Positions 1-39,935 of a DNA stretch of 64,000 nt are shown here, piece by piece. The notes beneath the pieces are model-generated. The model did not search any database. It saw nothing but the letters and a program-made list of their open reading frames with translations, and was not told the origin of the DNA. The stretch lies in the sequence record KY703222. One strand, given 5' to 3'. Origin of the DNA: Escherichia phage phiC120. Each line of letters begins with the position of its first letter. Positions within the stretch are counted from its first letter, which is position 1. The position numbers and the translations under genes were made by a program.

Positions 1-365
1 AGTAACTCTGAAGTGTCTTCGACTAGTTTAGCCCATTTAGAGAATCGTCGGCCACGTGGAATTGCCGCCATCATATAGTTGAAGTGCGCTTCATCACTTA
101 ATTCAGAACCGACTAAGTTCATCATGTAAACGGCTGGCATACATTCTGGGAACTGGGATAATGAGTTCTCAACCATAAATTTTGAGTAGTCGACCTGAGC
201 AATTGACATAGATTTCTTTTCATTAATAGCATTAATGATTTTAAAGAATTCATTCTCAGGTTTTTCTTTAAACATGTCAGCACATTTTTGAATCGCAACA
301 GCGTCGTTAGACTTCCATGCAATTTGGTGCTCGTTAAGTTGGACGTCATCATCAAATAAGTTCAT
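1..365 (-). CDS. 62: Clamp loader small subunit gp62, 5' portion (3' end lies beyond window start)
   Basis: ATG at 365..363 directly downstream of gene 44; hand translation [19 protein letters not shown]...[34 protein letters not shown] matches T4 gp62; absent from ORF track because truncated. Confidence 0.8.
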
Positions 366-366
366 A

Positions 367-1329
367 TTATTTCCAAGTCAGTTCGCAGGTCAGTTGAAGA
401 AGCATATACATAACATGTAATTCAATATTACTTGCTAATCCATGAAACTTATTATTTTCGCCTGCAATTTCATAAAGCGAAATAATACTTTTACCTGGTG
501 CAACTTTGTCATAACACTCAGAAACTAATTTATCGATGAACCATGAATAATCTGCGGCATATTTTGGAGCTAATGCACGAAGCTGTTTGATATCTTTATT
601 TTTCATTGCTTCTATGACATCATCTACCGTGCCACGATCATTGGTTACAATCGACAAAATACCTGCATCAAGAACACCTTTAGACGAGTACTGGTCTAAT
701 TGACCAATTGTACGACGAAAGTCTGGGAAGTTCTTTTTAACCAGAGCTGCAACAACTTTCATATCAGCGATTTCGATATTTTCGTTCTTACAGATTTCAA
801 CCATACGATGAATCATTTTCTTCATCATCGATATTTTATCTTCTTCGGTTGGACGTCCGAATTCGATAACTCGACAACGACTACGTAACGGTTCGATAAT
901 TCCATCGATGTTGTTGGCAGTAATAATAATAGAACAGTTACTAGAGAATTCTTCCATGAATGTACGAAGGTGACGTTGTGATTCAGCGAGGCCACTACGG
1001 TCAAATTCATCAATAACAATAACTTTAGGCTTGCCTTCCATTGAGACTGAACGAGCGAATGCAGTTAACGGACCACGCACAAAATCAATCTTACAATCAG
1101 AACCGTTGACGAACATCATTTCGGCATTGATATCATTACATAATGCTTTTGCTACGGTTGTTTTACCGGTACCAGGAGATGGAGAGTGTAAAATAATATG
1201 AGGAAGTTTTCCTTTAGATACTAAAGACTTGAATGTTTCATGGTCATACGCAGGCAGAATACATTCGTCAATGGAAGAAGGACGATATTTCTGTTCTAGA
1301 ATGTGTTCTTTGGAATTGATAGTAATCAT
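367..1329 (-). CDS. 44: Clamp loader large subunit gp44 (AAA+ ATPase)
   Basis: 320 aa; Walker [11 protein letters not shown], Walker B VIVIDEFD; N-terminus [18 protein letters not shown] as in T4 gp44. Confidence 0.93.
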
Positions 1330-1404
1330 GTAATTTTCCTCATTATCATTAAACTGGAGGATTTCTCCTCCATAATCGTATCACATTAAACTTAAAGCTT
1401 TGAC

Positions 1405-2091
1405 TTAGAAGTCGTGAGTAGAATCGGCTTCCATTGCAATAACATAACTTACTTGAGAGCTTTCAAACTTAGCTGCAACTTTATCACCAGCTCCCCACAA
1501 CATTACTTTATAGTTACCTGGCTGGATTTTCATATTAGCCATATTGATTACGAAGTTAAAGTTGTTAGAACCATCATAATCGGTAAGAGTCAAAGAATAC
1601 TTAGGACGAGTTAGACCGGAATCTTCAACTTTATTATAGCCATTGATAACAATTTTACCATCTTTATTTGTAATAGCAATTGTATCAATCTGGAGACCAC
1701 GTGAAACTCGAAGCAATTGTTGAAGGTCTTCAGCTTTAATTTCAGTAATCACAGAAGCCACTGGGAATTGAATTGGCTTATTAGGAAAAACAATGGTGCT
1801 CTTGTCGGCAGCAGGCCAATAAACTGTGGAACGTGTATCTGCAATTTTAATATTGCCATCAGTGTGCATTGAAATTTCAGCATCATCAGACACTAGACTC
1901 AAAATGCTTAAGAAGCTATTCAAATCATAAAGTGCTACGTCAAAATCAATTTCATCAGAGATATTTGCTTCCGCATAAGTGGTGCCATTAACTGCACGAG
2001 TCATAATAAATTTACCTTGACTCAGCAGAATGCCTGAGTTAATAGAGGCAAAGTTTTTCAGAATAGCGATAGTATCTTTAGACAGTTTCAT
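1405..2091 (-). CDS. 45: Sliding clamp gp45
   Basis: ORF 1405..2106; start placed at internal Met (MKLSKDTIAILKNF...) giving 228 aa as in T4 gp45; C-terminus ...ALEADSTHDF. Confidence 0.92.
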   Translation of the reverse strand: MKLSKDTIAILKNFASINSGILLSQGKFIMTRAVNGTTYAEANISDEIDFDVALYDLNSFLSILSLVSDDAEISMHTDGNIKIADTRSTVYWPAADKSTIVFPNKPIQFPVASVITEIKAEDLQQLLRVSRGLQIDTIAITNKDGKIVINGYNKVEDSGLTRPKYSLTLTDYDGSNNFNFVINMANMKIQPGNYKVMLWGAGDKVAAKFESSQVSYVIAMEADSTHDF

Positions 2092-2133: not shown

Positions 2134-2550
2134 TTATGCAGCAACCATCTGCTTTTTAATAGCTTCAGGCAGTGATTCAATATATTCTGGAATTTTAGAA
2201 GCAACAATTTCGCCGGCTGCAATTAGCTGTTCGTCGGCATCAACACAGTAGAAATCTTCCAGACGCTCAGAACCATCTTTATCAAGAACGATTTTTCCAC
2301 CAGCTTCAATAGAATCTTTATAGTGCTTACGCATCAGATGAATCCACATATCAGATACATCGTTATCAATAAAACCATAAATCATAAAACGAGTTTCTTG
2401 TGGCAAAGATTGAAGCTTTTTAGCACTTGCGTCATCACAATGCAGGACCCATGCTTTACGAACACGATTATGGTTATGCGGGTTAGCGTCAGTACGGATA
2501 GAAGTAACTTTCAGATCAGCAGCAGTAAAACCTTTAGCAGTGGTAAACAT
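2134..2550 (-). CDS. rpbA: RNA polymerase-binding protein RpbA (positional assignment)
   Basis: 138-aa ORF immediately upstream of gene 45, the T4 rpbA position; sequence not independently recognised. Confidence 0.5.
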   Translation of the reverse strand: MFTTAKGFTAADLKVTSIRTDANPHNHNRVRKAWVLHCDDASAKKLQSLPQETRFMIYGFIDNDVSDMWIHLMRKHYKDSIEAGGKIVLDKDGSERLEDFYCVDADEQLIAAGEIVASKIPEYIESLPEAIKKQMVAA

Positions 2551-2805: not shown

Positions 2806-4494
2806 TTATGAAACAGTCATCACAGTAAATCGTCCAACTTTGCTCATTTGAAGATGTTGTCCATAACGTTGAGGGTCATGGTCTCGATGAGAGATAATGA
2901 ACACATTAGTATTTTGTAAACTTCCAAGAATGGTATCTATAGCCTTAACAGCTTCAGAATCAACTGCCCCATCAAAAACCTCATCAAGAATCAACGTGTT
3001 GATTTTAACACCAGAAACTTTTTCAGCAATATCTCGCCATGTAAACAACAATGCGATATCGATACGTGCCTTTTCACCTTGACTAAATGAAGCATAACTA
3101 AAATCTTCACGACCACGTGATTTTATAGATTCATTGAATTCTTCATCAATAGAAAACACGTAATCAGCTTCCATGATTTTAAGATAATGGTTAATCTGCT
3201 TGTTGAAGAGAGGCACATATTTTTTAATGATAGCACCTTTAATACCAGAATCTTTTAACATATCTGTGATAATACCACGATGGTATTTTTCAAGAACGAT
3301 ATCCGATTTTGTTTTAATGATTTTATCAAGTTCTTTTTGAAGCAAAGCTATCTCATCGGCATGGTCGATAAATTCCGCCGAGGCTTGTTCTATTGCAGCT
3401 TTAACTTTCTTAGCTTTATCAATAGTGGCAATCATTGCTTGTTTCTTGGTACGGATATCAGATGCAAGGTCCTGTTTAGTCTTAACATTAGCTCGATATT
3501 CGTCCACTAGGACACTCAGATTATCTCTGTGACAGGTAAGTTGTTCGAATGAGTGATTACATTCATGAAGCTTATCGGTAATCTTAGAGACAATAGGATC
3601 ACCCTGGTGCAACTGTGATGCACAAGTAGGACATGTACCGCCATCATGATACATCTTAATAACTTTGTTATATGAGTCAATTTTAGATTTAATCAATAAT
3701 GCTTCTTGTCCGATCTTGTTGAATGCCTCAGTAGGGTCTTCGTCAAGAACGATATTAAGTAGTCGCTCATTAGCTTCTTCGATTTCTGCTTTTAATGACC
3801 GAGCTTCTTTGGCTAGGTCGTCATACATATTCTGTAGACGTGCTACATTATCGCCAGATAATTTCTTTTGGCGTTCGATATTCTCGTTATAAATCTTAAT
3901 TTGTTGGATAATACCATCTTTCTTGGCATCGAGAACTTGACCCTGGGAATTAAGTTCTCGAACTTGAGACTTATTGATTTTATCCATTTCAGCGAGTGTT
4001 CCAACTTCTAATAAGTCTTCAACAAGCTTTCTGCGAGCAGGGGTGCTAAGAGCCATGAAAGGGGTATACCCTGCCGTCCCAAGCACAACGATCTGTTTAA
4101 AAGACGCGTATGACATTCCGATGCTACGTTCAAATTCTTCTTGGAAGTCACGACTGCTGGCAGATTCATCAAGACGAACACCGTCAACGGAGATTTCGAA
4201 AATATTGGGCTTTTGGCCTCGTTTAATGAAGTATTTTTTATCATCGAATTCCATCCAAAGCTCAACTAAGAGCTCTTTCTTGTTCGTGCTATTAATGATT
4301 TGTCCTTTCTTAACATCACGAAATGGTTTACCGAAAAGTCCGAAAGTAATGGCTTCTAACATCGTAGATTTACCACCACCATTTTTACCAGTGATTAATG
4401 TCTTTTGGACTTTATCTAATTGGATATCAATAGGATTCCCACCTACCGACATGATGTTTTGATAACGAACACGATTTAATTTAAATGATTTCAT
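2806..4494 (-). CDS. 46: Recombination endonuclease subunit gp46 (Rad50/SbcC-like ATPase)
   Basis: 562 aa; N-terminal Walker A GKNGGGKST, long coiled-coil middle, C-terminal signature/Walker B LILDEVFDGAVD. Confidence 0.92.
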   Translation of the reverse strand: MKSFKLNRVRYQNIMSVGGNPIDIQLDKVQKTLITGKNGGGKSTMLEAITFGLFGKPFRDVKKGQIINSTNKKELLVELWMEFDDKKYFIKRGQKPNIFEISVDGVRLDESASSRDFQEEFERSIGMSYASFKQIVVLGTAGYTPFMALSTPARRKLVEDLLEVGTLAEMDKINKSQVRELNSQGQVLDAKKDGIIQQIKIYNENIERQKKLSGDNVARLQNMYDDLAKEARSLKAEIEEANERLLNIVLDEDPTEAFNKIGQEALLIKSKIDSYNKVIKMYHDGGTCPTCASQLHQGDPIVSKITDKLHECNHSFEQLTCHRDNLSVLVDEYRANVKTKQDLASDIRTKKQAMIATIDKAKKVKAAIEQASAEFIDHADEIALLQKELDKIIKTKSDIVLEKYHRGIITDMLKDSGIKGAIIKKYVPLFNKQINHYLKIMEADYVFSIDEEFNESIKSRGREDFSYASFSQGEKARIDIALLFTWRDIAEKVSGVKINTLILDEVFDGAVDSEAVKAIDTILGSLQNTNVFIISHRDHDPQRYGQHLQMSKVGRFTVMTVS

Positions 4495-4745
4495 ATGTAT
4501 TCTCTTCGAATGAAGTCCTCTACATATTTTAACATGTCATCCCTATCAGCAAAATATTCATCTAGTTCTGCATACATAACAACACCTGGGGCGTACTCAC
4601 AGGTAACATACATTGTTCCAAAGAAACGAGGAGTTGATTCCTCGTAATTCTCAGTCCATTCAACGATACCAATATAACCGTCACCAATACTAAATTCGTG
4701 ACGATGGATTTCATAGTCAGTCTTCGTCATTATACGCATCCTCAA
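4491..4745 (-). CDS. Hypothetical protein (46.1 position)
   Basis: 84-aa ORF overlapping gene 46 start by 4 nt. Confidence 0.5.
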   Translation of the reverse strand: MRMRIMTKTDYEIHRHEFSIGDGYIGIVEWTENYEESTPRFFGTMYVTCEYAPGVVMYAELDEYFADRDDMLKYVEDFIRREYI

Positions 4746-4974
4746 TACACGCTTCAGCCATTTTAAGAATAGAGCCAGGAGTATCGTTGTCCATTATATT
4801 AAAGCTAAATTCAATAGCCCAGTCGGTGCAGACATGAACTGCTTTAACTTCATTGCCTTCAACGCGTAATGGCTCAATCCAATACTTGATAGTGTTCTCG
4901 AATCCATCATCATCTTTAACGTCTATTTCAACTTCAAGCCCGAGCCCAGCATTGTTAAATTCATCTAAAGTCAT
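4717..4974 (-). CDS. Hypothetical acidic protein (46.2 position)
   Basis: 85-aa ORF between 46.1 and 47, overlapping both neighbours. Confidence 0.45.
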   Translation of the reverse strand: MTLDEFNNAGLGLEVEIDVKDDDGFENTIKYWIEPLRVEGNEVKAVHVCTDWAIEFSFNIMDNDTPGSILKMAEACIEDAYNDED

Positions 4975-5990
4975 TGTGTTGCCTCAATATAAAGTTCGTT
5001 AGAATATTTGACCAGCGCTTCTCTGTCTTCGTCTGAGATATCTGGAATCGCGTCAATATATTCTTTAATGATATCTTGAAGTGATTTAATCTCGATTTCC
5101 TGGTCGTCATCAGATTCAACACTGTTATCAACTTTAGAAACCATACGAAGAGAGTGAACTACTTTTTCAAGTTCAGATTCAAACTTAGTCAATTCTGAAT
5201 CAATTTCTGATACTATAACACGTACGGCTAGATTAGTATAATCAGAATAATTGATTTTGCCTTTAAATGGATAAGTGATTCGTCGATGCCATGTTGTTTC
5301 ATTAGGAATAAATTCCATACGTTCAACATCAGTGTCAAATACCCAGAATCCACGTGGGTCGTTCTCGTCACCTGCAGTAAGGGTCCATGGTGTCCCAATA
5401 TATTTGACGTTAGCAGCTTCAGAGATTGTGTGGAAGTGGCCAGACCAGACTTGTTTATATGTCTTTAAGAAATCGGGTTCAAGCCCATGAGACTTCATTC
5501 CTTTATAGAAATAAAAGCCGTTCAGTTCCCAGTGACCAACACAATACGCAGCAGAAGAAGTCTTGATGTGCTCTAAGATTTCACCTGTATTTTCTTCACA
5601 CATCCATGGAACGATATCAATCAGACATCCGTCAAAATCTACAGTAGTTGGATGTTCGTAAATAGTAAAGTTTTCAAATTGAGTTAACAATTCAGAAACA
5701 GTGTTAGGTGTTATTGTATTCTTAAACGCCATGTCATGGTTTCCTATCGTGACATGAACGTGAATGCCTGCTTTAGAAATCATATCAACGATTTCACGAT
5801 TGAATTCCATTGTACGATGTGTAATTGCTTTACGGACGTCGAACCAATCGCCGTACTGAATCCAAGTTTTAATCCCGTGTTTCTTAGAGTATTCAATTGC
5901 TTGACGAATACCATCACGTTGAATATCTTGGACCCATGGGTCATCTTGTTTGACTCCGATATGGAAGTCGCCTAAGTGCAAAATTTTCAT
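4971..5990 (-). CDS. 47: Recombination endonuclease subunit gp47 (Mre11/SbcD-like phosphoesterase)
   Basis: 339 aa; calcineurin-like motifs MKILHLGDFHIG, GDWFD, GNHD, GHFH. Confidence 0.92.
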   Translation of the reverse strand: MKILHLGDFHIGVKQDDPWVQDIQRDGIRQAIEYSKKHGIKTWIQYGDWFDVRKAITHRTMEFNREIVDMISKAGIHVHVTIGNHDMAFKNTITPNTVSELLTQFENFTIYEHPTTVDFDGCLIDIVPWMCEENTGEILEHIKTSSAAYCVGHWELNGFYFYKGMKSHGLEPDFLKTYKQVWSGHFHTISEAANVKYIGTPWTLTAGDENDPRGFWVFDTDVERMEFIPNETTWHRRITYPFKGKINYSDYTNLAVRVIVSEIDSELTKFESELEKVVHSLRMVSKVDNSVESDDDQEIEIKSLQDIIKEYIDAIPDISDEDREALVKYSNELYIEATQ

Positions 5991-6034
5991 ATTATTTCCT
6001 CATTAGTTAATTCATTCTATCATCCGTTTATAAA

Positions 6035-6060
6035 GCAAAAAAGGAACTCCGAAGAGTTCC
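6035..6060 (-). terminator. Intrinsic terminator (UUCG-loop hairpin plus U-tract)
   Basis: Minus strand GGAACUC-UUCG-GAGUUCC followed by UUUUUU, between the small ORF and gene 47. Confidence 0.7.
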
Positions 6061-6233
6061 TATCCACATAGTACACCGTACAGAGGCTCATTTGAACTTT
6101 TAAATCGAATGGGCTTGTACGTAATAGTTCCTTCGGCTTTAGCTTTATCATAAGACTCTTTAAAACGTCTCATTCTTTCTGCTTTGCCTTTACGGATTTT
6201 ATCGAAATTTTCAGAAGTCGGGATGTTCGTCAT
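6060..6233 (-). CDS. Small hypothetical protein (57 aa)
   Basis: Hand-translated ORF MTNIPTSENFDKIRKGKAERMRRFKESYDKAKAEGTITYKPIRFKSSNEPLYGVLCG ending at the terminator hairpin; below the ORF track size cutoff. Confidence 0.3.
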   Translation of the reverse strand: MTNIPTSENFDKIRKGKAERMRRFKESYDKAKAEGTITYKPIRFKSSNEPLYGVLCG

Positions 6234-6272
6234 GCATAAGCACCTCTCAGAAAATGCCTAAATCGATTTCTC

Positions 6273-6494
6273 TCATCGTTTCCACCATTTCTTAACTTGA
6301 AATGAATCAACCCACACGAGTTGTTTTGGGTCTGCCTTTACAATAGGCGGACAAATTTCTGTAATAGAACCGTCGTGATATTCCTTTTCAGAAATTTTAA
6401 CACAAAGAGGACCTCCCAATTTAAGGGTGAACCCTGCGTTCAGATTCAGACGTTTAAACTTTGTTTGAACTAGCGCCATTAATAATGTCCTCAA
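6273..6494 (-). CDS. Hypothetical protein
   Basis: 73-aa ORF in the 47-55 interval where T4 carries a-gt. Confidence 0.4.
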   Translation of the reverse strand: MRTLLMALVQTKFKRLNLNAGFTLKLGGPLCVKISEKEYHDGSITEICPPIVKADPKQLVWVDSFQVKKWWKR

Positions 6495-6777
6495 TAGCCT
6501 GACGAGTAGTAACCCATTGGATTTTAATTAACTTGTCATTATATGGTTGTCGTAGAATATCCCGAGATTTCTTAATAGCATATTCGTAAGCTTCGAAGTT
6601 GTTTTGAATTGCTGCTTCTTGAGCGTGAGCATAAAGACGGTTTAGTTCAAAACGATTCTTTTTAAGAATCTTTTCGGATTTTTTACGTGCTTCAGCTTCA
6701 TTTTTCTTTTGTATTTCTTGTAGCATTTTAGCTACTACATCTTCTGCTTCTTTATTTTCAATAATCTCGGTAGTCAT
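6454..6777 (-). CDS. Hypothetical protein
   Basis: 107-aa charged, helical ORF. Confidence 0.5.
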   Translation of the reverse strand: MTTEIIENKEAEDVVAKMLQEIQKKNEAEARKKSEKILKKNRFELNRLYAHAQEAAIQNNFEAYEYAIKKSRDILRQPYNDKLIKIQWVTTRQAIEDIINGASSNKV

Positions 6778-6778
6778 A

Positions 6779-6994
6779 TTATCTCATTAAATTAAAATAA
6801 AAACGTCCGTCCTCTTCAATACAGAACTCGTACTCAACTGGAGTCCCATTTATCGAAAATGACACGTCATGTGGGTTCAAAGGGTCGATGTCAAAATTAA
6901 TTTTAAATTCTCGACCCAACAGTTTTACTAAATAAGGGATTGCTTCGTCAAAAGGTTCTTCTAAGTAGTTAGAGATGTCAATTGTCATCCTCAT
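6779..6994 (-). CDS. Hypothetical protein (start uncertain)
   Basis: ORF 6779..7072 overlaps the gene 55 3' end; internal Met chosen as start. Confidence 0.4.
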
Positions 6995-7553
6995 ATAAAA
7001 AATCCAAACTAGGCGAATCGCTAACAACTTCCTTCTTTTCAGCCCCAGGAGCTTTATAAGCGGATTCTTCATAATGCGTCATTTTATCGTAGATGTCTTG
7101 AATAAACGTTTCATCTACCAACGCTACCATATCATCGTCATGACTGTCGTAGACATTATGAACGAAGTAACTATATTTCTTTGCAACTTCCTTACGTTCT
7201 TTTTTGATACGTTGGACAAAAGCATTAAAACAAGCTCGAGTTATGTATGCATGTGGGTTATTGTACTTAGTTTCGTCGAAATTATGAAGTCCCTTAATCG
7301 AGGCTTCAATCCCATCTGCAATCATCTCCTGCTTCCAAGACTGGGTATATCCTGAAAAGTTGAAACGTTTGGACAGGCCTTCGGCGATAAGCATAATTGC
7401 TAAACCGATGGTATCATTCTGACGAATAATTTTGTTTGGGTCTTTATTATTTAAGAGCTCCTTTTTCCACTCGATTATAGCAGCGAGAAGCTCTTTATTA
7501 TTCACATAGTTATTTTTAGGTTTTTGTTCAGTCATAAGTACCTCTTGGCTCAA
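6978..7553 (-). CDS. 55: Late-transcription sigma factor gp55
   Basis: 191 aa; [19 protein letters not shown]...[38 protein letters not shown] matches T4 gp55. Confidence 0.9.
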
Positions 7554-7690
7554 TTCATAGGTCTATTATATCATAATATTTAGAGACCTATCTTAAAGCA
7601 CGAGATACTATCAAAGATACGTAACTTTCATAAAGTTGACGACTTAAAATTCACCAAACTTTTCTTCGGTTATAGCAATTCGAGATAGTT

Positions 7691-10787: not shown

Positions 10788-11258
10788 TTAATCATGTTTC
10801 CACACCCCATCGGTATTTGACCAAAGACGCTGATTATCTGATCCTCGCCACAGTTTTTTGGTCGGAAGATTTTTCTCATACTTCCCATCAATAATAACAT
10901 CAACATATTTAAGCATTTCTAGTTGTTTAATATCTTCAAACTTATATCCTGTCCACAACCAAATGCTTTTATTAGGATAAAGATTTTTTACTGTTTGAGC
11001 AATGCGATGAATAACATCTCGGTTATCAGGATAGAGAGGGTCTCCTCCGGTTATAGTTAATCCTTCTATATAATCATTATTCAAACATTCAATCAATTGT
11101 TCTAGTGTTTCACCAGTGAATGGAATACCATTTCTAGCATTCCATGTTGATTTATTATAACACCCTTCGCATTTATGCAAACAACCTGTAACGAAAAGAA
11201 CGACCCTGCATCCAGGGCCATTCACAAAATCGCAAGGATAAAATCTATCATAATTCAT
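10788..11258 (-). CDS. nrdG: Anaerobic ribonucleotide reductase activating protein NrdG (radical SAM)
   Basis: 156 aa; cysteine-rich N-terminus FVNGPGCRVVLFVTGCLHKCEGCYN. Confidence 0.9.
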   Translation of the reverse strand: MNYDRFYPCDFVNGPGCRVVLFVTGCLHKCEGCYNKSTWNARNGIPFTGETLEQLIECLNNDYIEGLTITGGDPLYPDNRDVIHRIAQTVKNLYPNKSIWLWTGYKFEDIKQLEMLKYVDVIIDGKYEKNLPTKKLWRGSDNQRLWSNTDGVWKHD

Positions 11259-13072
11259 TGGTGTTTAACCCTATGCATGATTTCTTTATTTTTACCGAGA
11301 TTAAATCCGCGTTCGTTCGGATTTCCCAAATAACCGCATGTTCTTCTTATGGTGTTCATCTTTTTAGGATCAGTTTCTCCGCAAACTGAACAAACAAATC
11401 CGTTTTCAGTAGGAGTCATTTCATGGGTACTTCCACATGTAAAACATTTATCTACTGGCATATTAACACCAAAATAATCTAAATGTTGTGCAGCATAATC
11501 CCAGACGGCCTCAAGTCCCTTTAAATTGTTTTTCATATCTGGAAGTTCAACATAAGAAATGTGACCACCTGTCGCAATGAAATGATACGGCGCTTCACGA
11601 GAAATCTTTTCAAACGGAGTAATATTTTCTTCTACTGAAACGTGGAAACTATTAGTGTACCAGCCTTTATCGGTAACATCTTTTACGCTTCCATATTTTT
11701 CTGTATCAAGTTTACAGAAGCGATAACACAAGTTTTCAGCAGGAGTAGAATACAAGCTAAAAGCAAATCCAGTTCTTTCAGTCCACTGTTTAAGATGAGC
11801 ATTCATTTTAGTTAAAATTTCTTGCCCAATATCACGACCGACAAGAATATTCAATTCATGAATACCAATATATCCTAAAGACACTGAACTTCTACCGTTT
11901 TTAAATAACTCAATTATGTCGTCATCAGGTTTAAGACGAACACCGAATGCACCTTCTTGGTAAAGAATAGGAGCAACAGTCGCTTTAACTCCTTTTAAGG
12001 AACTAATTCTACACATCAAAGCTTCAAAACATAAATCCATTCGTTCATTGAATAATTCAACAAATTTCTGTTCGTTAAATTGCGTTCCAATATAAGAATC
12101 TAATGCGATACGAGGAAGATTCAGTGTTACAACACCGAGATTATTACGTCCATCAAGAATTTCATTACCAGTCGAATCTTTCCATACGCTCAAGAAACTA
12201 CGACAGCCCATTGGAGAAACAGGAATAGATGAGCCAGTGATAGCTTTATTATTCTTAACAGAAATAATGTCAGGATACATTCTTTTGCTTGCACACTCTA
12301 GAGCGAGTTGCTTAATATCATAGTTCGGATCGTCTTTATAAAGATTAACACCCTCTTCGACAAACATAACAAGTTTAGGGAAAATAGGAGTTATTCCATC
12401 ACGACCAAGTCCTTTAATCCGATTTTTCAGAATTGCTTTCTGAATCATTCGTTCAGTCCAATCAGTTCCAGTACCAAATGTAATTGTTACAAAAGGCGTT
12501 TGTCCGTTTGAACTAAAGAGAGTATTTACTTCATATTCATAAGCTTGAAATGCGTCATATACATCTTTTTCTGTTTTAGATTGAGCATAATTCAGAATGT
12601 CTGGTATTTGCCATTTTTCTGCATCTTCAACATGTTTAGCGTATGTACGTTTAACATAAGGAGAAAGAACTTTATCGACATTCGCAAATGTAGTTCCGCC
12701 GTACTGATGTGAAGCAACTTGTGCAGTAATTTGTGCCATAATTGCAGTAGCAACACCAATCGATTTAGGCGTTTCAATTTGAGCATTGCCTAATTTAAAT
12801 CCGTTCTCAAGCATCCCCTTTAAATCGACTAAACAGCAATTGGTAAACGGAAGAGCAGGAGAATAATCAATATCATGCATGTGAATGATTCCGCTTTCAT
12901 GCGCATTCATAATAAAAGACGGGACCATATTTTTGGCAATGTGTTTAGACACAATACCAGCCATAAGGTCCCGTTGAGTTGGAAAAACACGAGAATCTTT
13001 ATTAGCATTCTCGTTCAAAAGATCTTTATTAGTTTTATAAATTAATCCTTCAATTTCTTTTTCAATTTTCAT
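11255..13072 (-). CDS. nrdD: Anaerobic ribonucleoside-triphosphate reductase NrdD, uninterrupted
   Basis: 605 aa; C-terminal glycyl-radical region RRTCGYLG and zinc-ribbon cysteines CFTCGS...CSVCG; single continuous ORF. Confidence 0.93.
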   Translation of the reverse strand: MKIEKEIEGLIYKTNKDLLNENANKDSRVFPTQRDLMAGIVSKHIAKNMVPSFIMNAHESGIIHMHDIDYSPALPFTNCCLVDLKGMLENGFKLGNAQIETPKSIGVATAIMAQITAQVASHQYGGTTFANVDKVLSPYVKRTYAKHVEDAEKWQIPDILNYAQSKTEKDVYDAFQAYEYEVNTLFSSNGQTPFVTITFGTGTDWTERMIQKAILKNRIKGLGRDGITPIFPKLVMFVEEGVNLYKDDPNYDIKQLALECASKRMYPDIISVKNNKAITGSSIPVSPMGCRSFLSVWKDSTGNEILDGRNNLGVVTLNLPRIALDSYIGTQFNEQKFVELFNERMDLCFEALMCRISSLKGVKATVAPILYQEGAFGVRLKPDDDIIELFKNGRSSVSLGYIGIHELNILVGRDIGQEILTKMNAHLKQWTERTGFAFSLYSTPAENLCYRFCKLDTEKYGSVKDVTDKGWYTNSFHVSVEENITPFEKISREAPYHFIATGGHISYVELPDMKNNLKGLEAVWDYAAQHLDYFGVNMPVDKCFTCGSTHEMTPTENGFVCSVCGETDPKKMNTIRRTCGYLGNPNERGFNLGKNKEIMHRVKHQ

Positions 13073-17139: not shown

Positions 17140-18099
17140 TTATGATTTTAATGCATTCATTGCGTTAAAAAGTTTAGAATACTGCAACTGGAGATTCGTT
17201 ACAACACTTTGAGCATCACGAAGCTTAGCTTGTGCTTTGTCAAGTTCAACAGACAGTTGGTCTACAGTAGCCTTGATTTGATTGTAATGGTAATCTTCGG
17301 CCGGAATAAGGTCATTAGAAACATTTAGTTTTACTGCAGACAGTTTGCACACATTTGGCAAACCTTTAAACATTGATTTACCCGAAGTAGAATAAGCACT
17401 TAGGACTTCGGCCTGTTCAATTGGGGTCCCAGTAAGCGATGCTTCAAACAATGCATTTTCTTTTTTAAGATTTTGATAGTATTCAGAGTCTTTGTGCCAC
17501 CATGGCGCAGGAACCTTTTTACCAATAGATACACGAGCCTGGATAGCGATATGGCCCTTATTCTTGATAGGGTCGATAATATTAAGCTCACGAGAATAAA
17601 TTGCTTTAATCTGGTGAATATTATCACCTAACACTTCCAACGCTTGGTGGAATACACGAGCAACGTTATCATTCTTAGGTTTATACGTAAGAGTGAACTC
17701 GTTCTCACTGATAACCATGATTTCTAACTTATCATAAGTATATTTCAAATGTTTCATGTTAATTGCTTGAGGACGAATACGAGAAGCAATGGCCATCAGA
17801 TTGTTAAGGTTATTCCGGAACTGCTTAGCGAAATATTGTCCTTCACCGCCAATACAAAAATTACGAAGTTTCTGTTTGGCTAATAAACGGCTGAACTCGC
17901 CATTTTTAATGAACTCTTTAACTGGTGTGTTAGTAACGCATTCAAATTGAGTAAACTTACGAGAAGTAATCCCATAATATGAACAGACTTCCTCAATCTC
18001 TTCAGGAGTCTTTACAGGCATACGGATAGGATTAGGTCCTGGAGTATATGCGTTCGAGGTAAATTCTTTGATAAGTTCTTTACGTGTAATAAAAGCCAT
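17140..18099 (-). CDS. Hypothetical protein with C-terminal coiled coil
   Basis: 319-aa ORF; upstream repeat shared with the 16127 gene. Confidence 0.55.
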   Translation of the reverse strand: MAFITRKELIKEFTSNAYTPGPNPIRMPVKTPEEIEEVCSYYGITSRKFTQFECVTNTPVKEFIKNGEFSRLLAKQKLRNFCIGGEGQYFAKQFRNNLNNLMAIASRIRPQAINMKHLKYTYDKLEIMVISENEFTLTYKPKNDNVARVFHQALEVLGDNIHQIKAIYSRELNIIDPIKNKGHIAIQARVSIGKKVPAPWWHKDSEYYQNLKKENALFEASLTGTPIEQAEVLSAYSTSGKSMFKGLPNVCKLSAVKLNVSNDLIPAEDYHYNQIKATVDQLSVELDKAQAKLRDAQSVVTNLQLQYSKLFNAMNALKS

Positions 18100-30321: not shown

Positions 30322-30350
30322 ATGTTTCCTTTAAATGTAAATAGGCCTTA

Positions 30351-30929
30351 TTAATTACCACGGGCCGCATTAGCGACGGCGTAAGCGTACTGAACATTAG
30401 CGTCTTTAAACGTACCTTTAGAGGTATCTATTTCTGCCTTAAAGCCACCTTTAGCCATAACATCGGCAAATTCTTTACGGAAAGTCATTGCATCAAGACC
30501 TTTCCATGATGATTTATGCTTGGCAAATTCAAGACCAGCGTAGTTGACAGCTTTAGCCAATTTATTATCAATGACCCATTTACCTGCTTTAGGCACAAAC
30601 TTCGGGCCTTTTTGTTTAGAGAACAGTTTTAAATTCCAGCGACGAAGGTCACTGTCGGCTTTAACAAAAGCTGCGTCTAAGTTACTAGCAACAACATCTT
30701 CAATATGAGCAAATTTAAGTCCGTCAACTTCAATATTTAGATCGTTACGCCAGCGTAGTCCTTCCCAAGCGAAGGCTTTAAAATCAGAAGCTTTTGTGGC
30801 TAGATATCGTTCAAGTGGAGCAGTTTTAGGGTCAAAACCATTTCCGCCACGATAATTCCACTCGTCCTTATTAATGCCTTGAGCTTTTCCTGCAAAGGCC
30901 TCGGCGATAAATTCTTTATATGTTTTCAT
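30351..30929 (-). CDS. Internal protein with capsid targeting sequence (IP-like)
   Basis: N-terminus MKTYKEFIAE; 192 aa. Confidence 0.7.
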   Translation of the reverse strand: MKTYKEFIAEAFAGKAQGINKDEWNYRGGNGFDPKTAPLERYLATKASDFKAFAWEGLRWRNDLNIEVDGLKFAHIEDVVASNLDAAFVKADSDLRRWNLKLFSKQKGPKFVPKAGKWVIDNKLAKAVNYAGLEFAKHKSSWKGLDAMTFRKEFADVMAKGGFKAEIDTSKGTFKDANVQYAYAVANAARGN

Positions 30930-30959
30930 TTTTGTTTCCTTGTTTGTTTTGATAGAGTA

Positions 30960-33232: not shown

Positions 33233-33705
33233 TCGGTAATAAAACGTTCAACTTCATTATTCTTGGCCTTTATCTTGTCTTTACGTTCCTGTAAACTACT
33301 TTTAACAAGATTAATAATGATGCCTATAGTACCTCCACCAATAATACCACCAATAATACTTACGATAGTAGATGCTAATAATATAGCGATAATATCTGGT
33401 ATGGCAAAGGCACTTACTTTAGTACTAAAAAACCATACCGACGGTACAAATATAATCCATCCTGTTATCCATTGGCACTTATTGAAAAACTTTTCAAGCT
33501 CAGCTTGAGTTGTTCGTATTACTTCATCGATAGGTTGATATCCATTAATGTATCTGTTCACGATAATACCTGCTGGCTGGTCGATTTTAAATTCTTGACA
33601 AATACGTTTCACTAAGTAGGATGGACATCCTGTCCAATCTACTGAATAGTACGAAATACCTTCATTACCGTCGTCTATATTAGACCAATATGTTTTGTTA
33701 ATCAT
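33214..33705 (-). CDS. Membrane protein
   Basis: 163 aa; hydrophobic segments WITGWIIFVPSVWFF and IIAILLASTIVSIIGGIIGGGTIGIIINLV. Confidence 0.5.
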   Translation of the reverse strand: MINKTYWSNIDDGNEGISYYSVDWTGCPSYLVKRICQEFKIDQPAGIIVNRYINGYQPIDEVIRTTQAELEKFFNKCQWITGWIIFVPSVWFFSTKVSAFAIPDIIAILLASTIVSIIGGIIGGGTIGIIINLVKSSLQERKDKIKAKNNEVERFITECRNLR

Positions 33706-34391
33706 TACCAGCCTTCCATAGGGAATTCCAGATAAACTTGAGCATTGACACGAATTTCATTAGTAATCTTTTTAACTCGGTCTGTATTACGAGATACACG
33801 TCCGAACCAACGCCATCCATTACTAATTGCACGAGAACCAGTGTGCCATGTTTGCCAATCAAACTGAAGAAGAGTACGGTCCGGAGCTTCCCATTTCTCT
33901 AGTTCACCTTTTTCAATTTTTTCGAGGACTTCTTTGTGCCACTGGCGATAGATAAGTTCGCCATCAGGAATCTGACTGAACTCTGCAGTTCCTGTTGCAA
34001 AATGAGTAGGACACACATCAGCGTTAACAAGACCAAGAATATGTTCAGAATGGTAACGAGGGTTATCATAGTCAGGTTGTCCTGCAGTAATAAAGTGTTG
34101 GCCGACTGGAATATCAGGGCGAGGAACATCATCATGGTGATATCCAGGAATAGCAGGATACCAACCAGGCATCAGCATGTGGACTCGTGAATCAAATACT
34201 ACATCCGAGCCTTTCCAATCGTCAGGGAGATTTTGGATAAAGCTACGAGTAATTGGACCACCGTTATCCCAAGCAAAACTCAAATCACAGTTAAAGAACA
34301 TTGGTTCATTTTTGATTTGGTCATTTTGTACGTTATGAGCAAAACCACCTACTGCACGAGCTTGACTATTAAACACTTTAGAACTATTCAT
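33705..34391 (-). CDS. Hypothetical protein (His/Asp-rich)
   Basis: 228-aa ORF; GYHHDDV and HSEH clusters of unclear significance. Confidence 0.5.
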   Translation of the reverse strand: MNSSKVFNSQARAVGGFAHNVQNDQIKNEPMFFNCDLSFAWDNGGPITRSFIQNLPDDWKGSDVVFDSRVHMLMPGWYPAIPGYHHDDVPRPDIPVGQHFITAGQPDYDNPRYHSEHILGLVNADVCPTHFATGTAEFSQIPDGELIYRQWHKEVLEKIEKGELEKWEAPDRTLLQFDWQTWHTGSRAISNGWRWFGRVSRNTDRVKKITNEIRVNAQVYLEFPMEGW

Positions 34392-34392
34392 A

Positions 34393-34698
34393 TTATTTTC
34401 CTCGGCATTCTTTAATGAAATTTTCTAGATTGGTAGATTCAATAGCTTTTTTACGAGCTTCTGCATGTTCTTCTTCAGACAATTTACATTTATAATTAAC
34501 CCAGACGTTATGGTCAAAACTAGTCGTGGCATATAATAACAAAGCCCCGACGAATAATAAAAATGGTGATAAGAATACAAAACCAGGAACACCATCCATA
34601 TCGTAAGCCTTTTGTAATACTGCAACAGAAAGAGCTGCGTAAAAAGGTGATGCAAATATTGTAAAAAGACCAATTCGGTTGGTTTCGCCTAATTTCAT
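34393..34698 (-). CDS. Membrane protein
   Basis: 101 aa with two hydrophobic helices. Confidence 0.5.
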   Translation of the reverse strand: MKLGETNRIGLFTIFASPFYAALSVAVLQKAYDMDGVPGFVFLSPFLLFVGALLLYATTSFDHNVWVNYKCKLSEEEHAEARKKAIESTNLENFIKECRGK

Positions 34699-34726
34699 AA
34701 TATTCTCCTCATGTTTTAATAGGACT

Positions 34727-34756
34727 ACTATAACATAGTCCTATAATTGTGTAAAC
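34727..34756 (-). promoter_or_regulatory. Early-type promoter GTTTAC-N18-TATAGT inside palindrome ATAGGACTA / TAGTCCTAT
   Basis: Upstream of gene 34393..34698. Confidence 0.5.
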
Positions 34757-34768
34757 AGTTTTGTGAAA

Positions 34769-35725
34769 TTATTTGAAAGGTTTTACCATATGGAAATTTT
34801 GTTTGAAACGTTTGACGTAATCATCATGTCCTAAGCTTTGATACATACTTACTACTTTGCTGTAGTTTTCCCAAGCGTATTCACGAAACCAACCGGAGGT
34901 GATGCTTGTACAGACTTTTTCCAATGCCATCATAAAACTATCACGTGGATGGATTTTAAAGTCATTAGGAATCTGAGAACGTTCTAATGCTAGTACACAT
35001 GATTCTTCGTATACACCGGCTAATTTGACCATTTCTGGTAATGATTCGAACTTCTCGCGTGAGGTCATGACTTCAGAACCATCTTTCATATAAAATGTAT
35101 ACGCTGGACGGTCTGTTAGTGCAATGGCTTCGTGAATAGTATCATGATCGTATGTGTAGATATCATCTTTAAAGAATGCGCTTTTAGAAGTGTCAAGAAC
35201 TGGGTGAGCATAGTTCAAGGTTTCTTTCTGGCGTTTCAGCATAATTTCAGTAAGTTCATCGTTCAGTTTAACACCTTTACCACGAAGATACTGAATATGG
35301 TTCATAGTCTTTAAAAAGAATGGATTATTTTTCTTGAAACGATGAGACATCTTAATTGCAAGACACAACTCAGGAGTTGCCCAGTAAAACCCGTTCAAAC
35401 GGTCTTTAGTCAAATTTTTCTTGGCATATTTTAAAAGGTCATAAGAAGACGTGAAATCTTCAGGAGTGAGTTCACCGACTAATTCACGGACATTAGTGAT
35501 TGCCGGAACAATATATGCTTCAAAATGAGTTTCGCGTCCATTATGGAAGCATTTGAAAACTTGGACATCAGGGTTATCTTGGTGAACATATACGCCCATC
35601 ATTTGATTTTTGAATGCATTCCAAGAACCTTGGTCCGCAATAAAGTCCCAATCGCTATTTTTGATAGCGCTAGAATCAATAAGACCATGATAGTGAAGTG
35701 CACGAGAACCAATAACCAACATCAT
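34769..35725 (-). CDS. Hypothetical protein
   Basis: 318-aa ORF; N-terminal IGSRALHYHG...SDWDF weakly reminiscent of a nucleotidyltransferase motif. Confidence 0.5.
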   Translation of the reverse strand: MMLVIGSRALHYHGLIDSSAIKNSDWDFIADQGSWNAFKNQMMGVYVHQDNPDVQVFKCFHNGRETHFEAYIVPAITNVRELVGELTPEDFTSSYDLLKYAKKNLTKDRLNGFYWATPELCLAIKMSHRFKKNNPFFLKTMNHIQYLRGKGVKLNDELTEIMLKRQKETLNYAHPVLDTSKSAFFKDDIYTYDHDTIHEAIALTDRPAYTFYMKDGSEVMTSREKFESLPEMVKLAGVYEESCVLALERSQIPNDFKIHPRDSFMMALEKVCTSITSGWFREYAWENYSKVVSMYQSLGHDDYVKRFKQNFHMVKPFK

Positions 35726-35753
35726 AATATTTTCCTCGGATTAATTCATTAAC

Positions 35754-35993
35754 TTAAATTTCACGACATGCGATATCATATTCATCCCAGAGGTCATCGT
35801 GTGAAGCCTCTACCAATGGAACGATTGTACCGTTTATGTCTTCATTATAAGGACAAATTGTACAGTGCGCATCTTCGAATCGTATGCCTTTGTGTTCAGA
35901 TTTTTTATAACGCATATCGAATATCTTTGCAAACTTTTCACGAGTAATAGTTTTAGCAACTACTTCGGTTCCGATACTTTCGTAATAAATCAT
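35754..35993 (-). CDS. Hypothetical protein (start at internal Met)
   Basis: ORF 35754..36005; GGAG SD precedes the second Met. Confidence 0.45.
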   Translation of the reverse strand: MIYYESIGTEVVAKTITREKFAKIFDMRYKKSEHKGIRFEDAHCTICPYNEDINGTIVPLVEASHDDLWDEYDIACREI

Positions 35994-36020
35994 TGTAGAC
36001 TCCATTTAATTTGATAGGAC

Positions 36021-36050
36021 TACTATAACATAGCCCTATCTTGTTGTAAA
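36021..36050 (-). promoter_or_regulatory. Early-type promoter GTTTAC-N18-TATAGT
   Basis: Upstream of gene 35754..35993; box GATAGGACTACTATAACATAGCCCTATC. Confidence 0.5.
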
Positions 36051-36055
36051 CTGTT

Positions 36056-36253
36056 TTAGCAAGAATAACTAGATGATACCCAGCCTTGAATAGTAATGCT
36101 ATTATTGGATAATGAGATCGCGTCCTGGAGATTCAGACCTGCGTTATCTTCAATCCACAATGTAACTTCTTCGCGTTCTTCTGTTGCAATCTGGAACAGG
36201 TTTTCTAGAGCAGCTACTGCGGTACGTACAGCACAATCTAATTCACGAGACAT
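36056..36253 (-). CDS. Small protein with C-terminal WVSSSYSC (paralogue family)
   Basis: 65 aa ending ...QGWVSSSYSC. Confidence 0.45.
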   Translation of the reverse strand: MSRELDCAVRTAVAALENLFQIATEEREEVTLWIEDNAGLNLQDAISLSNNSITIQGWVSSSYSC

Positions 36254-36262
36254 ATGGTTTCC

Positions 36263-36535
36263 TTAGCAAGTGTGAGAAGATGCAACCCATCCGCCGTCTT
36301 CAAGGCTCAGGTTGTAGTCGTATTGGTAAACGTCGGCCCATTCAGCATAACCGTTTTTTGTACAACGTTCAAGATCGGCTTTAAGATGTCCGGGTGAATG
36401 ATAGGTTCCACCCATACCATAAGCTGGATACAAGTCGAATGTTGTATTTTGTTTATTAGCAATTTCTTTGGCTGCCTCAATAGCTGCATAGATTTTTGCT
36501 ACGGCTTCAGCCAGTTCGGTTTGTTCTTTAGACAT
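36263..36535 (-). CDS. Small protein with C-terminal WVASSHTC (paralogue family)
   Basis: 90 aa ending ...GGWVASSHTC. Confidence 0.5.
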   Translation of the reverse strand: MSKEQTELAEAVAKIYAAIEAAKEIANKQNTTFDLYPAYGMGGTYHSPGHLKADLERCTKNGYAEWADVYQYDYNLSLEDGGWVASSHTC

Positions 36536-36544
36536 AATGATTCC

Positions 36545-36850
36545 TTAGCACAACGCAGAAGACGAAACCCAAGCACCTTCAGTAATAACGTAACCATTAC
36601 CTTCACGCTTAACATCGCCACCATTATTTTCAATTTCATCTTTCATCCACTGGGATACAATTTCACCCTTAGGATAATAAGTACGACCGCTACCATAATC
36701 ACCTACAGAAAACGATACGGCGTATTGGTCTGCGATCTTTGTTGCTTCTTCTTCGATACGTTCAGCTTGATTCAGAAGTTTATAAATTGCATCTGAAGCG
36801 GATTTGGCATCATTAAACTCTGGTACTTTAATTTCAATAATCTTACTCAT
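36545..36850 (-). CDS. Small protein with C-terminal WVSSSALC (paralogue family)
   Basis: 101 aa ending ...GAWVSSSALC. Confidence 0.5.
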   Translation of the reverse strand: MSKIIEIKVPEFNDAKSASDAIYKLLNQAERIEEEATKIADQYAVSFSVGDYGSGRTYYPKGEIVSQWMKDEIENNGGDVKREGNGYVITEGAWVSSSALC

Positions 36851-38906: not shown

Positions 38907-39437
38907 TCATTTATTTTTAATTTTGCAAATTTTTCCAGCTTCGATACATGCAGCATAGATGATGCTCTGGGCAATTTTATTGCTAGTAGACCTTGCAATC
39001 ACACTAAGAACAATTTCTTTTTCTTCACCACCACAACCCCAGGACCTTTGCTCATGAGTACCTTTAACTACGGCTGAAACTTCAACAGAACGTCCGCCAT
39101 CAGAAGTTTTAACATCTACAACCCAATCGCCATCTTTCTCTTCAACCTGTGGTTTATCCCAAGAAATACTAATATATGATTCACTGTCAATAGAAGTCGC
39201 CGGGTTTTTCTTTACTGTAAGACCTTCACTTTCCAGCCATTCAATAGTATTTGCGCATAAATCAGAAGAACACCTCATCGGAAACTGGCAAGATTTTTCA
39301 CCTTTAGCTGCAGCGTTATACATCTTTTCTAAAATACGCTTTTGCACGTTTTTAAAAATAGTTTCAGCAGATTCTTCAGATTTTTTATTCAGTTCAGTAT
39401 AAAGACTCATAACATTCTTCTCATTAATAGGGCTCAT
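38907..39437 (-). CDS. Hypothetical protein
   Basis: 176-aa ORF. Confidence 0.5.
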   Translation of the reverse strand: MSPINEKNVMSLYTELNKKSEESAETIFKNVQKRILEKMYNAAAKGEKSCQFPMRCSSDLCANTIEWLESEGLTVKKNPATSIDSESYISISWDKPQVEEKDGDWVVDVKTSDGGRSVEVSAVVKGTHEQRSWGCGGEEKEIVLSVIARSTSNKIAQSIIYAACIEAGKICKIKNK

Positions 39438-39467
39438 AATATCTCAATCATAAGCCCATGTACGCAT

Positions 39468-39743: not shown

Positions 39744-39773
39744 GGTTTTTCTGTATCGGTAGTTGATAGTTGT

Positions 39774-39931: not shown

Positions 39932-39935
39932 ATAC

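Follow-up and report, generated by a model that had tools for sequence, protein, structure and literature searches.

The 64,000-nucleotide stretch of Escherichia phage phiC120 DNA analyzed in this study is referred to as the window. Positions 5991-6977 of the window, 987 bases in total, are exactly the gap between gene 47 and gene 55, whose products share 76% and 91% amino acid identity with T4 gp47 and gp55, respectively. The original prediction described this interval as holding small ORFs of 57 to 107 aa and a terminator, with no alpha-glucosyltransferase gene (a-gt). Both parts were confirmed. All of the small ORFs are identified herein; they are four minus-strand homologues of T4 a-gt.2, a-gt.3, a-gt.4, and a-gt.5, accompanied by one terminator hairpin (Table 1). 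The absence of a-gt between the two genes was verified by tblastn and by profile search. Only two non-coding gaps are present in the interval, one of 69 nt between gene 47 and a-gt.2 and one of 39 nt between a-gt.2 and a-gt.3. The first part of the a-gt.5 homologue shares 17 nt with the end of gene 55; an upstream ATG inside gene 55 would lengthen this protein to 97 aa. The a-gt.3 gene is annotated at 207 nt in RB69, Bas47, and mar005P1, and an upstream TTG start would give a product of 73 aa in the window. In the literature, a-gt.2 to a-gt.5 receive a single incidental mention.

Table 1 Features of the gene 47-gene 55 junction and the gene 1 locus in the window.
Feature	Position	Strand	Evidence and remarks
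Gene 47, SbcD-like recombination nuclease subunit, 339 aa	4971-5990	minus	PHROG 100, E 1.6e-135; left boundary
MotA-box-like middle promoter	6014-6037	minus	TGCTTTA, 11 nt, TAGAAT; 24 nt upstream of gene 47 ATG
Intrinsic terminator-like hairpin	6042-6061	minus	AGGAACTC-UUCG-GAGUUCCU followed by six T's; 8-pair stem (terminator scan)
a-gt.2 homologue, 57 aa	6060-6233	minus	Pfam DUF5486, E 4.5e-28; PHROG 2140; 76% identity to T4 a-gt.2
a-gt.3 homologue, 68 aa	6273-6479	minus	PHROG 1648, E 1.3e-33; 69% identity to T4 a-gt.3
a-gt.4 homologue, 107 aa	6454-6777	minus	Pfam DUF2654, E 1e-27; PHROG 951; 58% identity to T4 a-gt.4
a-gt.5 homologue, 71 aa	6779-6994	minus	Pfam DUF5491, E 1.4e-12; PHROG 1169; 47% identity to T4 a-gt.5
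Gene 55, late sigma factor, 185 aa	6978-7535	minus	PHROG 234, E 3.9e-68; right boundary
Gene 1, dNMP kinase, 244 aa	44589-45323	minus	Pfam DNMK, E 9.1e-97

The 69-nt gap between gene 47 and a-gt.2 is occupied by the terminator and the promoter. The 5' end of the hairpin overlaps the a-gt.2 stop codon (6060-6062). The folding energy of the hairpin was -13.9 kcal/mol with a z-score of -3.37, and none of 200 shuffled sequences was equally stable. A hairpin is found in the corresponding position after a-gt.2 in T4, RB69, and Dhakavirus QL01. The window contains 14 copies of the pattern TGCTTYA-N10-13-TANNNT, where 2.3 would be expected, and a count of 14 was reached in 0 of 100 shuffles. The copy upstream of gene 47 is intergenic and correctly oriented, and the module containing it aligns with those in RB69, T4 (two copies), and Mineola. 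A stable stem-loop followed by a Mot-box and a -10 box at proper spacing within an intergenic gap is the layout of the composite terminator-promoter motifs termed PmSL (PMC4122927). The hairpin and the MotA box have this layout and form a PmSL-like module, with both functions predicted from the sequence; on the minus strand, transcripts would end at about 6040 and start at about 6007.

The sequence places the window in Mosigvirus, the RB69 group of T-even phages. The window is 97-99% identical at the nucleotide level to p000y, phiE142, WFbE185, Bas47, and RB69, and the gene order is identical. The phiE142 record is filed under Carettavirus; WFbE185, Bas47, p000y, and RB69 are filed as Mosigvirus. 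Over window positions 200-1500, the best phage record showed 99.2% identity, and contigs whose gp44 or gp46 is identical to that of the window were 97-98% identical to it in nucleotide sequence. A 40-mer with a SNP private to the window had no match in IMG/VR or in the metagenome collection, and none of the records searched is identical to the window. RB69 is about 97% identical across the first 7.6 kb. The interval is conserved in length, measuring 986-991 nt in 18 of 18 related loci (RB69 and 17 others). In RB69 (NC_004928 38972-41536), the interval is 987 nt with the same order of 47, a-gt.2, a-gt.3, a-gt.4, a-gt.5, and 55, and the terminator/promoter spacer differs by one base in 91 aligned nt. 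The two genomes differ just beyond gene 55, where RB69 carries ORF072c (DUF7200), which is missing from the window. The missing a-gt is genuine but ordinary, as it has long been known for RB69-like phages; the lack of a-gt and b-gt in RB69 was published in 2018 (PMC6024577). Apart from the description of the junction, no new biology is added. The Mosigvirus interval is a fixed unit of about 987 bases comprising a-gt.5, a-gt.4, a-gt.3, a-gt.2, the hairpin, and a putative MotA-type middle promoter, and this promoter would drive genes 47 and 46.

In close relatives, the genes for DNA modification are found a short distance to the left of the window, in the region from uvsX to gene 43, with one additional gene adjoining rIIA. 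The cluster starts about 4 kb left of window base 1. The two transferase genes are located about 9 kb to the left and about 33 kb to the left, the latter beside rIIA. A 366-aa transferase adjoins rIIA in Bas47 and phiE142, and also in RB69 according to the literature. A 299-aa transferase adjoining a thymidylate-synthase homologue was assigned to Bas47, phiE142, RB69, and a further 14 contigs from metagenomes or isolates. The two genes were seen in 10 of 10 distinct contigs with identical gp44; the 4 loci with identical gp46 end before the synthase and the 299-aa transferase. A SIS isomerase, an NTP-transferase, and a Peptidase_U32-like gene were found left of gene 43 in all identical-gp44 contigs (10/10) and all identical-gp46 contigs (4/4). 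Similarly, sugar-nucleotide (UDP-arabinose) genes lie between the thymidylate-synthase homologue and gene 43 in every relative examined. Of the modified-cytosine pathway, gene 1 alone lies in the window. Its product is 62% identical to T4 gp1, and the products of the flanking genes 57B, 2, and 4 are higher, at 77-86%.

The DNA chemistry of these relatives has been published. RB69 DNA contains arabinose (PMC6024577), present as mono- and di-arabinosyl-5-hydroxycytosine; gp48 is the 5-hydroxy-dCMP synthase, and gp46:47 and gp3 are the transferases (PMC13326640). The Mosigvirus phage NP carries 5-ara-dC and 5-ara-ara-dC (PMC13390438). Arabinosylated 5-hydroxy-dC has been demonstrated for RB69, NP, and Bas46/47, and the papers of 2025-2026 established that the arabinose of Mosigvirus is ether-linked to 5-hydroxycytosine and that the thymidylate-synthase homologue is the 5-hydroxy-dCMP synthase (PMC13326640, PMC13390438). 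Co-expression of RB69 gp159, the gene 1 orthologue, with the 5-hydroxy-dCMP synthase resulted in 5-hydroxy-dC in the DNA; for no phage has the first arabinosyl transfer yet been reproduced in vitro (PMC13326640).

Taken together, phiC120 is an RB69-type phage without a-gt at this locus, in which arabinosyl-5-hydroxycytosine is very probably made by genes outside the window. This placement can be made because the window belongs to a well-studied genus, and the junction would have no alpha-glucosyltransferase because glucosyl-hydroxymethylcytosine is not a product of this lineage. The arabinosylation cluster is expected in phiC120 itself from relatives that are 97-99% identical. The predicted chemistry is likewise extrapolated from relatives differing by 1-3% in sequence.

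The pathway steps are known for RB69, Bas46/47, NP, and HY126, and from these we infer the steps in phiC120. The thymidylate-synthase homologue at the gene 42 position would convert dCMP to 5-hydroxy-dCMP, and kinases including the gene 1 product encoded in the window would raise it to the triphosphate. The hydroxylated triphosphate would then take the place of C during replication. Two GT-B arabinosyltransferases, one encoded at the b-gt position beside the synthase and the other beside rIIA, would attach one or two arabinofuranoses from the donor UDP-arabinose. The donor would be supplied by the cluster of isomerase, kinase/uridylyltransferase, and phosphatase genes between the gene 42 position and gene 43.

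It is very unlikely that T4-like hydroxymethylcytosine is made and that arabinose is placed on its hydroxymethyl group. Such a base was assumed when Thomas et al. found arabinose in RB69 DNA in 2018 (PMC6024577), and in many database records the protein encoded at the gene 42 position is still annotated as a dCMP hydroxymethylase. However, the MS/MS base fragment at m/z 128.05, NMR, 18-O2 labelling, and expression of RB69 gp48 all lead to 5-hydroxycytosine with an ether-linked sugar (PMC13326640); the fragment of hydroxymethylcytosine would be at 142.06. The independent NP data agree, and the 2018 assignment was termed erroneous (PMC13390438). Moreover, T4 gp42 shares only 25% identity with its positional counterpart in Bas47, compared with 75-90% for neighbouring core genes. 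The original prediction, which took hydroxymethylcytosine as the base, is out of date on this premise for the same reasons. Its proposal that the base is modified differently stands in part: as in close relatives, the modification would be arabinosylation by a transferase encoded elsewhere, and the base would be 5-hydroxycytosine, not hydroxymethylcytosine. The step from a missing a-gt alone to a different chemistry does not follow, since several T4 relatives without a-gt have b-gt and ba-gt homologues (PMC6024577).

A slightly smaller probability is given to cytosines without sugar, either as a bare modified base or as plain C, with the transferases lost or never acquired. This reading would agree with the lack of any glycosyltransferase match within the 64 kb window. 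The result is expected in any case, because the genome would measure about 170 kb and the window spans only about 38% of it; transferase and UDP-arabinose genes are found at fixed positions outside the window in every 97-99% identical relative examined. Within the whole 64 kb, T4 a-gt, b-gt, mobB, and 47.1 gave only chance matches by tblastn (E of at least 0.3), and the best match of a-gt (E 0.54) was located outside the interval. A tblastn search of the window with the Bas47 arabinosyltransferase proteins was negative. In the early-gene region (about 14-43 kb), no glycosyltransferase was detected by Pfam, PHROG, and NCBIfam scans, which covered most ORFs of at least 130 aa without an obvious function and most ORFs without a T4 counterpart, leaving out several short ORFs (below about 90 aa) of the latter kind. 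The ORFs of about 320 aa at 16.1-22.4 kb were rejected as candidates; they correspond to T4 nrdC.3-nrdC.11, genes that T4 has in addition to its transferases. The 318-aa ORF at 34769-35725 (DUF7277 and DUF7275) had no glycosyltransferase or PDB match.

That an a-gt is present in phiC120 but split, relocated, or too diverged, or is missing through an assembly or deletion artefact, has almost no probability, even though such artefacts do occur, as two modification genes in the RB69 reference were falsely split by sequencing errors (PMC13326640). A split gene among the small ORFs, named with the original prediction as a result that would refute it, was found neither by tblastn nor by profile search; the four ORFs are full-length matches to four different T4 a-gt.N genes, and Pfam and PHROG put them in other families (DUF5486, DUF2654, DUF5491, PHROG 1648). 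The profile built from T4 and Klebsiella phage (Mineola) a-gt was negative in every frame, with a best E of 1 among 2318 six-frame window fragments and 9e-273 for the T4 control. Of the two non-coding gaps, the 69-nt one is taken up by the terminator and the promoter, and the 39-nt one is too short for a remnant. Also against this reading are the interval length common to the 18 independent genomes or contigs and the whole RB69 genome, which is without a homologue of a-gt, b-gt, or ba-gt by BLASTP (PMC6024577).

Depending on how its cytosine is modified, a T-even phage evades some of the restriction, CRISPR, and type IV (GmrSD/BrxU-like) defences and triggers others. The placement with the arabinosyl-5-hydroxycytosine phages is therefore useful for host range prediction and phage therapy. 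The suggestion that a different modification bears on what the internal proteins must counter is not borne out in its simple form: the window retains, at 43534-43821, an orthologue of T4 IPI, which inhibits the glucosyl-hydroxymethylcytosine-dependent nuclease GmrSD.

The T4 region between genes 47 and 55 reads 47, 47.1, a-gt, mobB, a-gt.2-a-gt.5, and 55. The a-gt gene encodes the 400-aa DNA alpha-glucosyltransferase (AGT), an enzyme of the GT-B fold. T4 and the window have orthologous flanking genes and orthologous copies of the four a-gt.N genes (47-91% amino acid identity), and both have a hairpin and MotA-box module after the a-gt.2 stop codon. In contrast, T4 has an extra 2.2 kb with 47.1, a-gt, and the HNH homing endonuclease gene mobB, all missing from the window. 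Two hairpin/promoter modules bracket the mobB and a-gt cassette in T4; the window has one module and no cassette. This single module, compared with two in T4, is a small addition to the known picture. Among the T-even genera, a-gt is found at this junction in Tequatrovirus and Jiaodavirus and not in Mosigvirus or Dhakavirus. In Jiaodavirus Mineola, a single module copy comes after a-gt, and in Dhakavirus QL01 an HNH gene comes after the single copy. Homologues of a-gt were found in 657 phage records (Tequatrovirus, Jiaodavirus), and the 299-aa arabinosyltransferase was found in 347 other records (Mosigvirus, Dhakavirus, Acinetobacter and Serratia phages). From these arrangements, we tentatively consider that the module at 6014-6061 might be a recombination hotspot, through which a-gt, mobB, and HNH cassettes were gained or lost among the T-even genera, although this is rather doubtful. 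If true, the presence of a-gt, and hence part of the DNA-modification type of a lineage, would be set by exchange between modules.

Two known systems can be compared with the window. The arabinosyl-5-hydroxycytosine system (RB69 gp3, gp45-55, and gp159; HY126 Afh proteins) is encoded by all of the closest relatives of the window and also by Dhakavirus and by Acinetobacter and Serratia Straboviridae. The window holds its dNMP kinase component, and the synthase, the transferases, and the UDP-arabinose enzymes lie outside. The second system is the PeSL/PmSL motifs of T4-like phages (Arbiol 2010, Comeau 2014). The PmSL examples published so far come from vibriophage nt-1 and another locus, and the module described here is a prediction from sequence. 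As in those motifs, the stem-loop is directly followed by a promoter, which in the window is of the putative middle type with a TGCTT Mot-box. The likeness extends to the position of the module, at a junction where the gene content varies among relatives between a-gt, a mobB or HNH gene, and nothing.

The early region of the window is transcribed from the minus strand, and its genes are given here by ascending coordinate, against the direction of transcription. From the start of gene 47 to the stop of gene 55, 987 bases were counted, coinciding with 5991-6977. Four small ORFs were found, each matched over its full length to one T4 gene. These matches and the folding of the hairpin between a-gt.2 and gene 47 (-13.9 kcal/mol, z -3.4) bear out the original prediction that this interval holds only small ORFs and a terminator, with no alpha-glucosyltransferase gene (a-gt).

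Features of the gene 47-55 region and the gene 1 kinase
Feature	Coordinates	Strand	Length	Family or sequence	aa identity to T4	Location
gp44	367-1329	-				early region
gp45	1405-2091	-				early region
rpbA	2134-2550	-				early region
gp46	2806-4494	-				early region
46.1 + 46.2	4491-4974	-				early region
gp47	4971-5990	-				early region, followed by the four small ORFs
Terminator-like hairpin	6061-6042	-		AGGAACUC-UUCG-GAGUUCCU, then six T's		69-nt a-gt.2/gene 47 gap
a-gt.2 counterpart	6060-6233		57 aa	DUF5486	76%	
a-gt.3 counterpart	6273-6479		68 aa	PHROG 1648	69%	
a-gt.4 counterpart	6454-6777		107 aa	DUF2654	58%	
a-gt.5 counterpart	6779-6994		71 aa	DUF5491	47%	
gp55	6978-7535	-				early region, beyond the four small ORFs
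Gene 1, dNMP kinase	44589-45323	-		DNMK, E 9e-97		

The T4 order is 47 / 47.1 / a-gt (400 aa) / mobB / a-gt.2 / a-gt.3 / a-gt.4 / a-gt.5 / 55. When T4 a-gt, b-gt, mobB and 47.1 were compared with the whole window by tblastn, only chance matches were obtained (E at least 0.3). A profile of T4 a-gt and the a-gt of Klebsiella phage Mineola (66% identical) was searched against all 2318 six-frame window fragments; the best E was 1, and the T4 control gave 9e-273. The only non-coding gaps of the interval measure 69 nt, with terminator and promoter inside, and 39 nt, which is too short to leave room for a gene remnant. The tblastn, the profile search and the gap sizes rule out a split or re-annotated a-gt, and its predicted absence stands.

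Both the interval and the complete window show 97-99% identity to RB69-group phages (p000y, ESh15, phiE142, WFbE185, ATK47, mar005P1, Bas47 'AlbertHofmann' and RB69), all classified as Mosigvirus save phiE142, filed under Carettavirus. A 40-mer spanning a SNP private to the window had no match in IMG/VR or the metagenome collection, and neither a phage record nor a contig with identical gp44 or gp46 reached 100% identity. RB69, sequenced in 2003, is annotated in the same order as the window: 47, a-gt.2, a-gt.3, a-gt.4, a-gt.5, 55. The interval spans 986-991 nt in 18 loci from related isolates and metagenomic contigs, and 3152 nt in T4. The a-gt-free interval is a known genus-wide configuration of RB69-like phages. 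RB69, Bas47 and the majority of related contigs carry an 89-aa DUF7200 gene (RB69 ORF072c) between genes 55 and 55.1; the window is without it (about 7554-7690, breakpoint at 7612/7613), a shorter form shared with a minority of contigs (L008, L011 and L023).

The missing a-gt had also been read as a pointer to DNA chemistry, for which it is insufficient alone. Phages such as CC31 and PS2 are without a-gt yet carry b-gt and ba-gt homologues (PMC6024577). To define the chemistry, the gene 42 / b-gt region, outside the window, is needed as well. Of the sequenced 'RB' phages, RB69 is the only one reported to be without any a-gt, b-gt or ba-gt homologue, and its DNA was described with arabinose in place of glucose (Thomas et al. 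2018; PMC6024577). In the 2025-2026 revision, RB69 DNA contains mono- and di-arabinosylated 5-hydroxycytosine, with the arabinose ether-linked straight to C5 (PMC13326640). The gp48 protein, homologous to thymidylate synthase, acts as a flavin-dependent 5-hydroxy-dCMP synthase, and 5-hydroxy-dC was introduced into DNA using gp48 and the gene 1 kinase gp159; gp46:47, adjoining gp48, and gp3, adjoining rIIA, were proposed as first and second arabinosyltransferases, and UDP-arabinofuranose is the product of gp51, gp52:53 and gp55 (PMC13326640). An independent study detected these nucleosides in Mosigvirus NP and called the earlier hmC assignment erroneous (PMC13390438). For Bas46, Bas47 and HY126, Mahler et al. 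2025 and He et al. are cited in PMC13326640. The expectation of a different sugar, with transferases elsewhere, was right in direction, as indicated by the RB69-group relatives; its hmC premise is outdated (PMC13326640, PMC13390438). For phiC120 itself, the expectation rests on these relatives and is not provable from the window.

The gene order in Bas47, phiE142 and RB69 is uvsX / kinase / 299-aa transferase / thymidylate-synthase homologue / small ORF / U32-like / phosphatase / 561-aa kinase/uridylyltransferase / small ORF / isomerase / gene 43 / regA / 62 / 44. In relatives, this modification cluster begins about 4 kb left of the point in gene 62 where the window opens; the second transferase is encoded between rIIA and gene 39, about 33 kb left of that point. 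The cluster through the thymidylate-synthase homologue and the 299-aa transferase was present in all 10 distinct contigs with gp44 identical to that of the window, and 4 of 4 contigs with identical gp46 had the stretch between the isomerase and the U32-like gene, both included, which is as far as they extend. The Bas47 synthase is 25% identical to T4 gp42 (neighbouring core proteins, 75-90%), which fits a different enzyme and not a gp42 orthologue. Within the phage collection, 657 records have an a-gt homologue (Tequatrovirus, at about 90-100% identity; Klebsiella Jiaodavirus, at about 66%) and 347 have the 299-aa transferase (Mosigvirus, Dhakavirus and related enterobacterial, Acinetobacter and Serratia phages).

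No Bas47 modification protein was found inside the window by tblastn. Gene 1 is the only component of the pathway there. Its product is 62% identical to T4 gp1, with the flanking 57B, 2 and 4 at 77-86%; this would fit adaptation to 5-hydroxy-dCMP rather than hydroxymethyl-dCMP. Pfam, PHROG and NCBIfam scans covered, in the early-gene region at about 14-43 kb, most ORFs of at least 130 aa without obvious function and most without a T4 counterpart, several short ones apart, and gave no glycosyltransferase match. The ~320-aa ORFs in a row at 16.1-22.4 kb, rejected as transferase candidates, are counterparts of T4 nrdC.3, nrdC.5, nrdC.6, nrdC.10 and nrdC.11, genes present in T4 besides its own transferases. 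An ORF block at 33705-36850 (-), including a 228-aa ORF, has no counterpart in the compared T4 23-80 kb region and gave no glycosyltransferase signal. Its 318-aa ORF (34769-35725, -) carries DUF7277 and DUF7275, with a weak sub-threshold HisJ/PHP-phosphatase match (E 0.0016).

T4 internal protein I (IPI) inhibits the glucosyl-hmC-dependent nuclease GmrSD. Its orthologue in the window (43534-43821, -; PF11634 IPI_T4, E 2.6e-49) shows 86% aa identity, and IPI-like genes with at least 90% identity occur in about 130 records; among those listed as examples, most are RB69-group phages. The group of this phage carries arabinosyl-5-hydroxycytosine instead of glucosyl-hmC. Mosigvirus NP is restricted by BrxU, of the GmrSD family, an enzyme that cuts arabinosylated DNA in vitro (PMC13390438). 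Since BrxU acts on such DNA, retention of IPI is plausible.

Other points of comparison with T4 emerged along the window. The nrdD gene (11255-13072, -) is intron-free, and 11238-12534 shows 94.3% nt identity to T4 (99% at the protein level over 425 aa) against about 72% for the surrounding DNA. This stretch ends about where the T4 intron containing I-TevII begins, and looks like a patch that the T4 and RB69 lineages exchanged or co-converted fairly recently. Further islands of 90-92% nt identity, over the same ~72% background, lie at 39407-39961, 41169-41513 and 30341-30941; they comprise the e.8 region, a region matching the T4 small stable RNAs rnaC/rnaD, and ipIII. The window has just two tRNA genes, Arg-TCT and Met-CAT (41871-42027, -), compared with eight and segB in T4; two are likewise reported for Mosigvirus NP (PMC13390438).

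Directly past the hairpin lies TTTTTTGCTTTATAAACGGATGATAGAAT, a MotA-box TGCTTTA, 11 nt and a -10 box TAGAAT, placed 24 nt ahead of the gene 47 ATG. Across the window, 14 matches to TGCTTYA-N10-13-TANNNT were counted, where 2.3 would be expected. From these elements, we infer that the module would end the 55/a-gt.N transcript and restart transcription for genes 47 and 46. An HNH homing-endonuclease gene occupies the 47/a-gt.2 junction in Dhakavirus QL01 (17410-18027 of its locus, L025), and mobB, of the HNH family, with a-gt in T4 (2886-3680 of L003), both just downstream of the conserved module. This suggests that the junction is an insertion hotspot. Motifs of this composite terminator-promoter type, called PeSL or, with a Mot-box, PmSL, are proposed to mediate gene shuffling in T4-like genomes (PMC2839356, PMC4122927).

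The same module follows a-gt.2 in RB69, in T4 ahead of mobB, and in QL01 ahead of the endonuclease gene inserted before gene 47. T4 has a second copy after a-gt, so its mobB and a-gt cassette is bracketed by two modules; Mineola has a single copy, after a-gt. The a-gt-free configuration is already known in RB69-like phages, and the sole addition here is the description of the junction as a single terminator/middle-promoter module without the cassette, compared with two copies around mobB and a-gt in T4.
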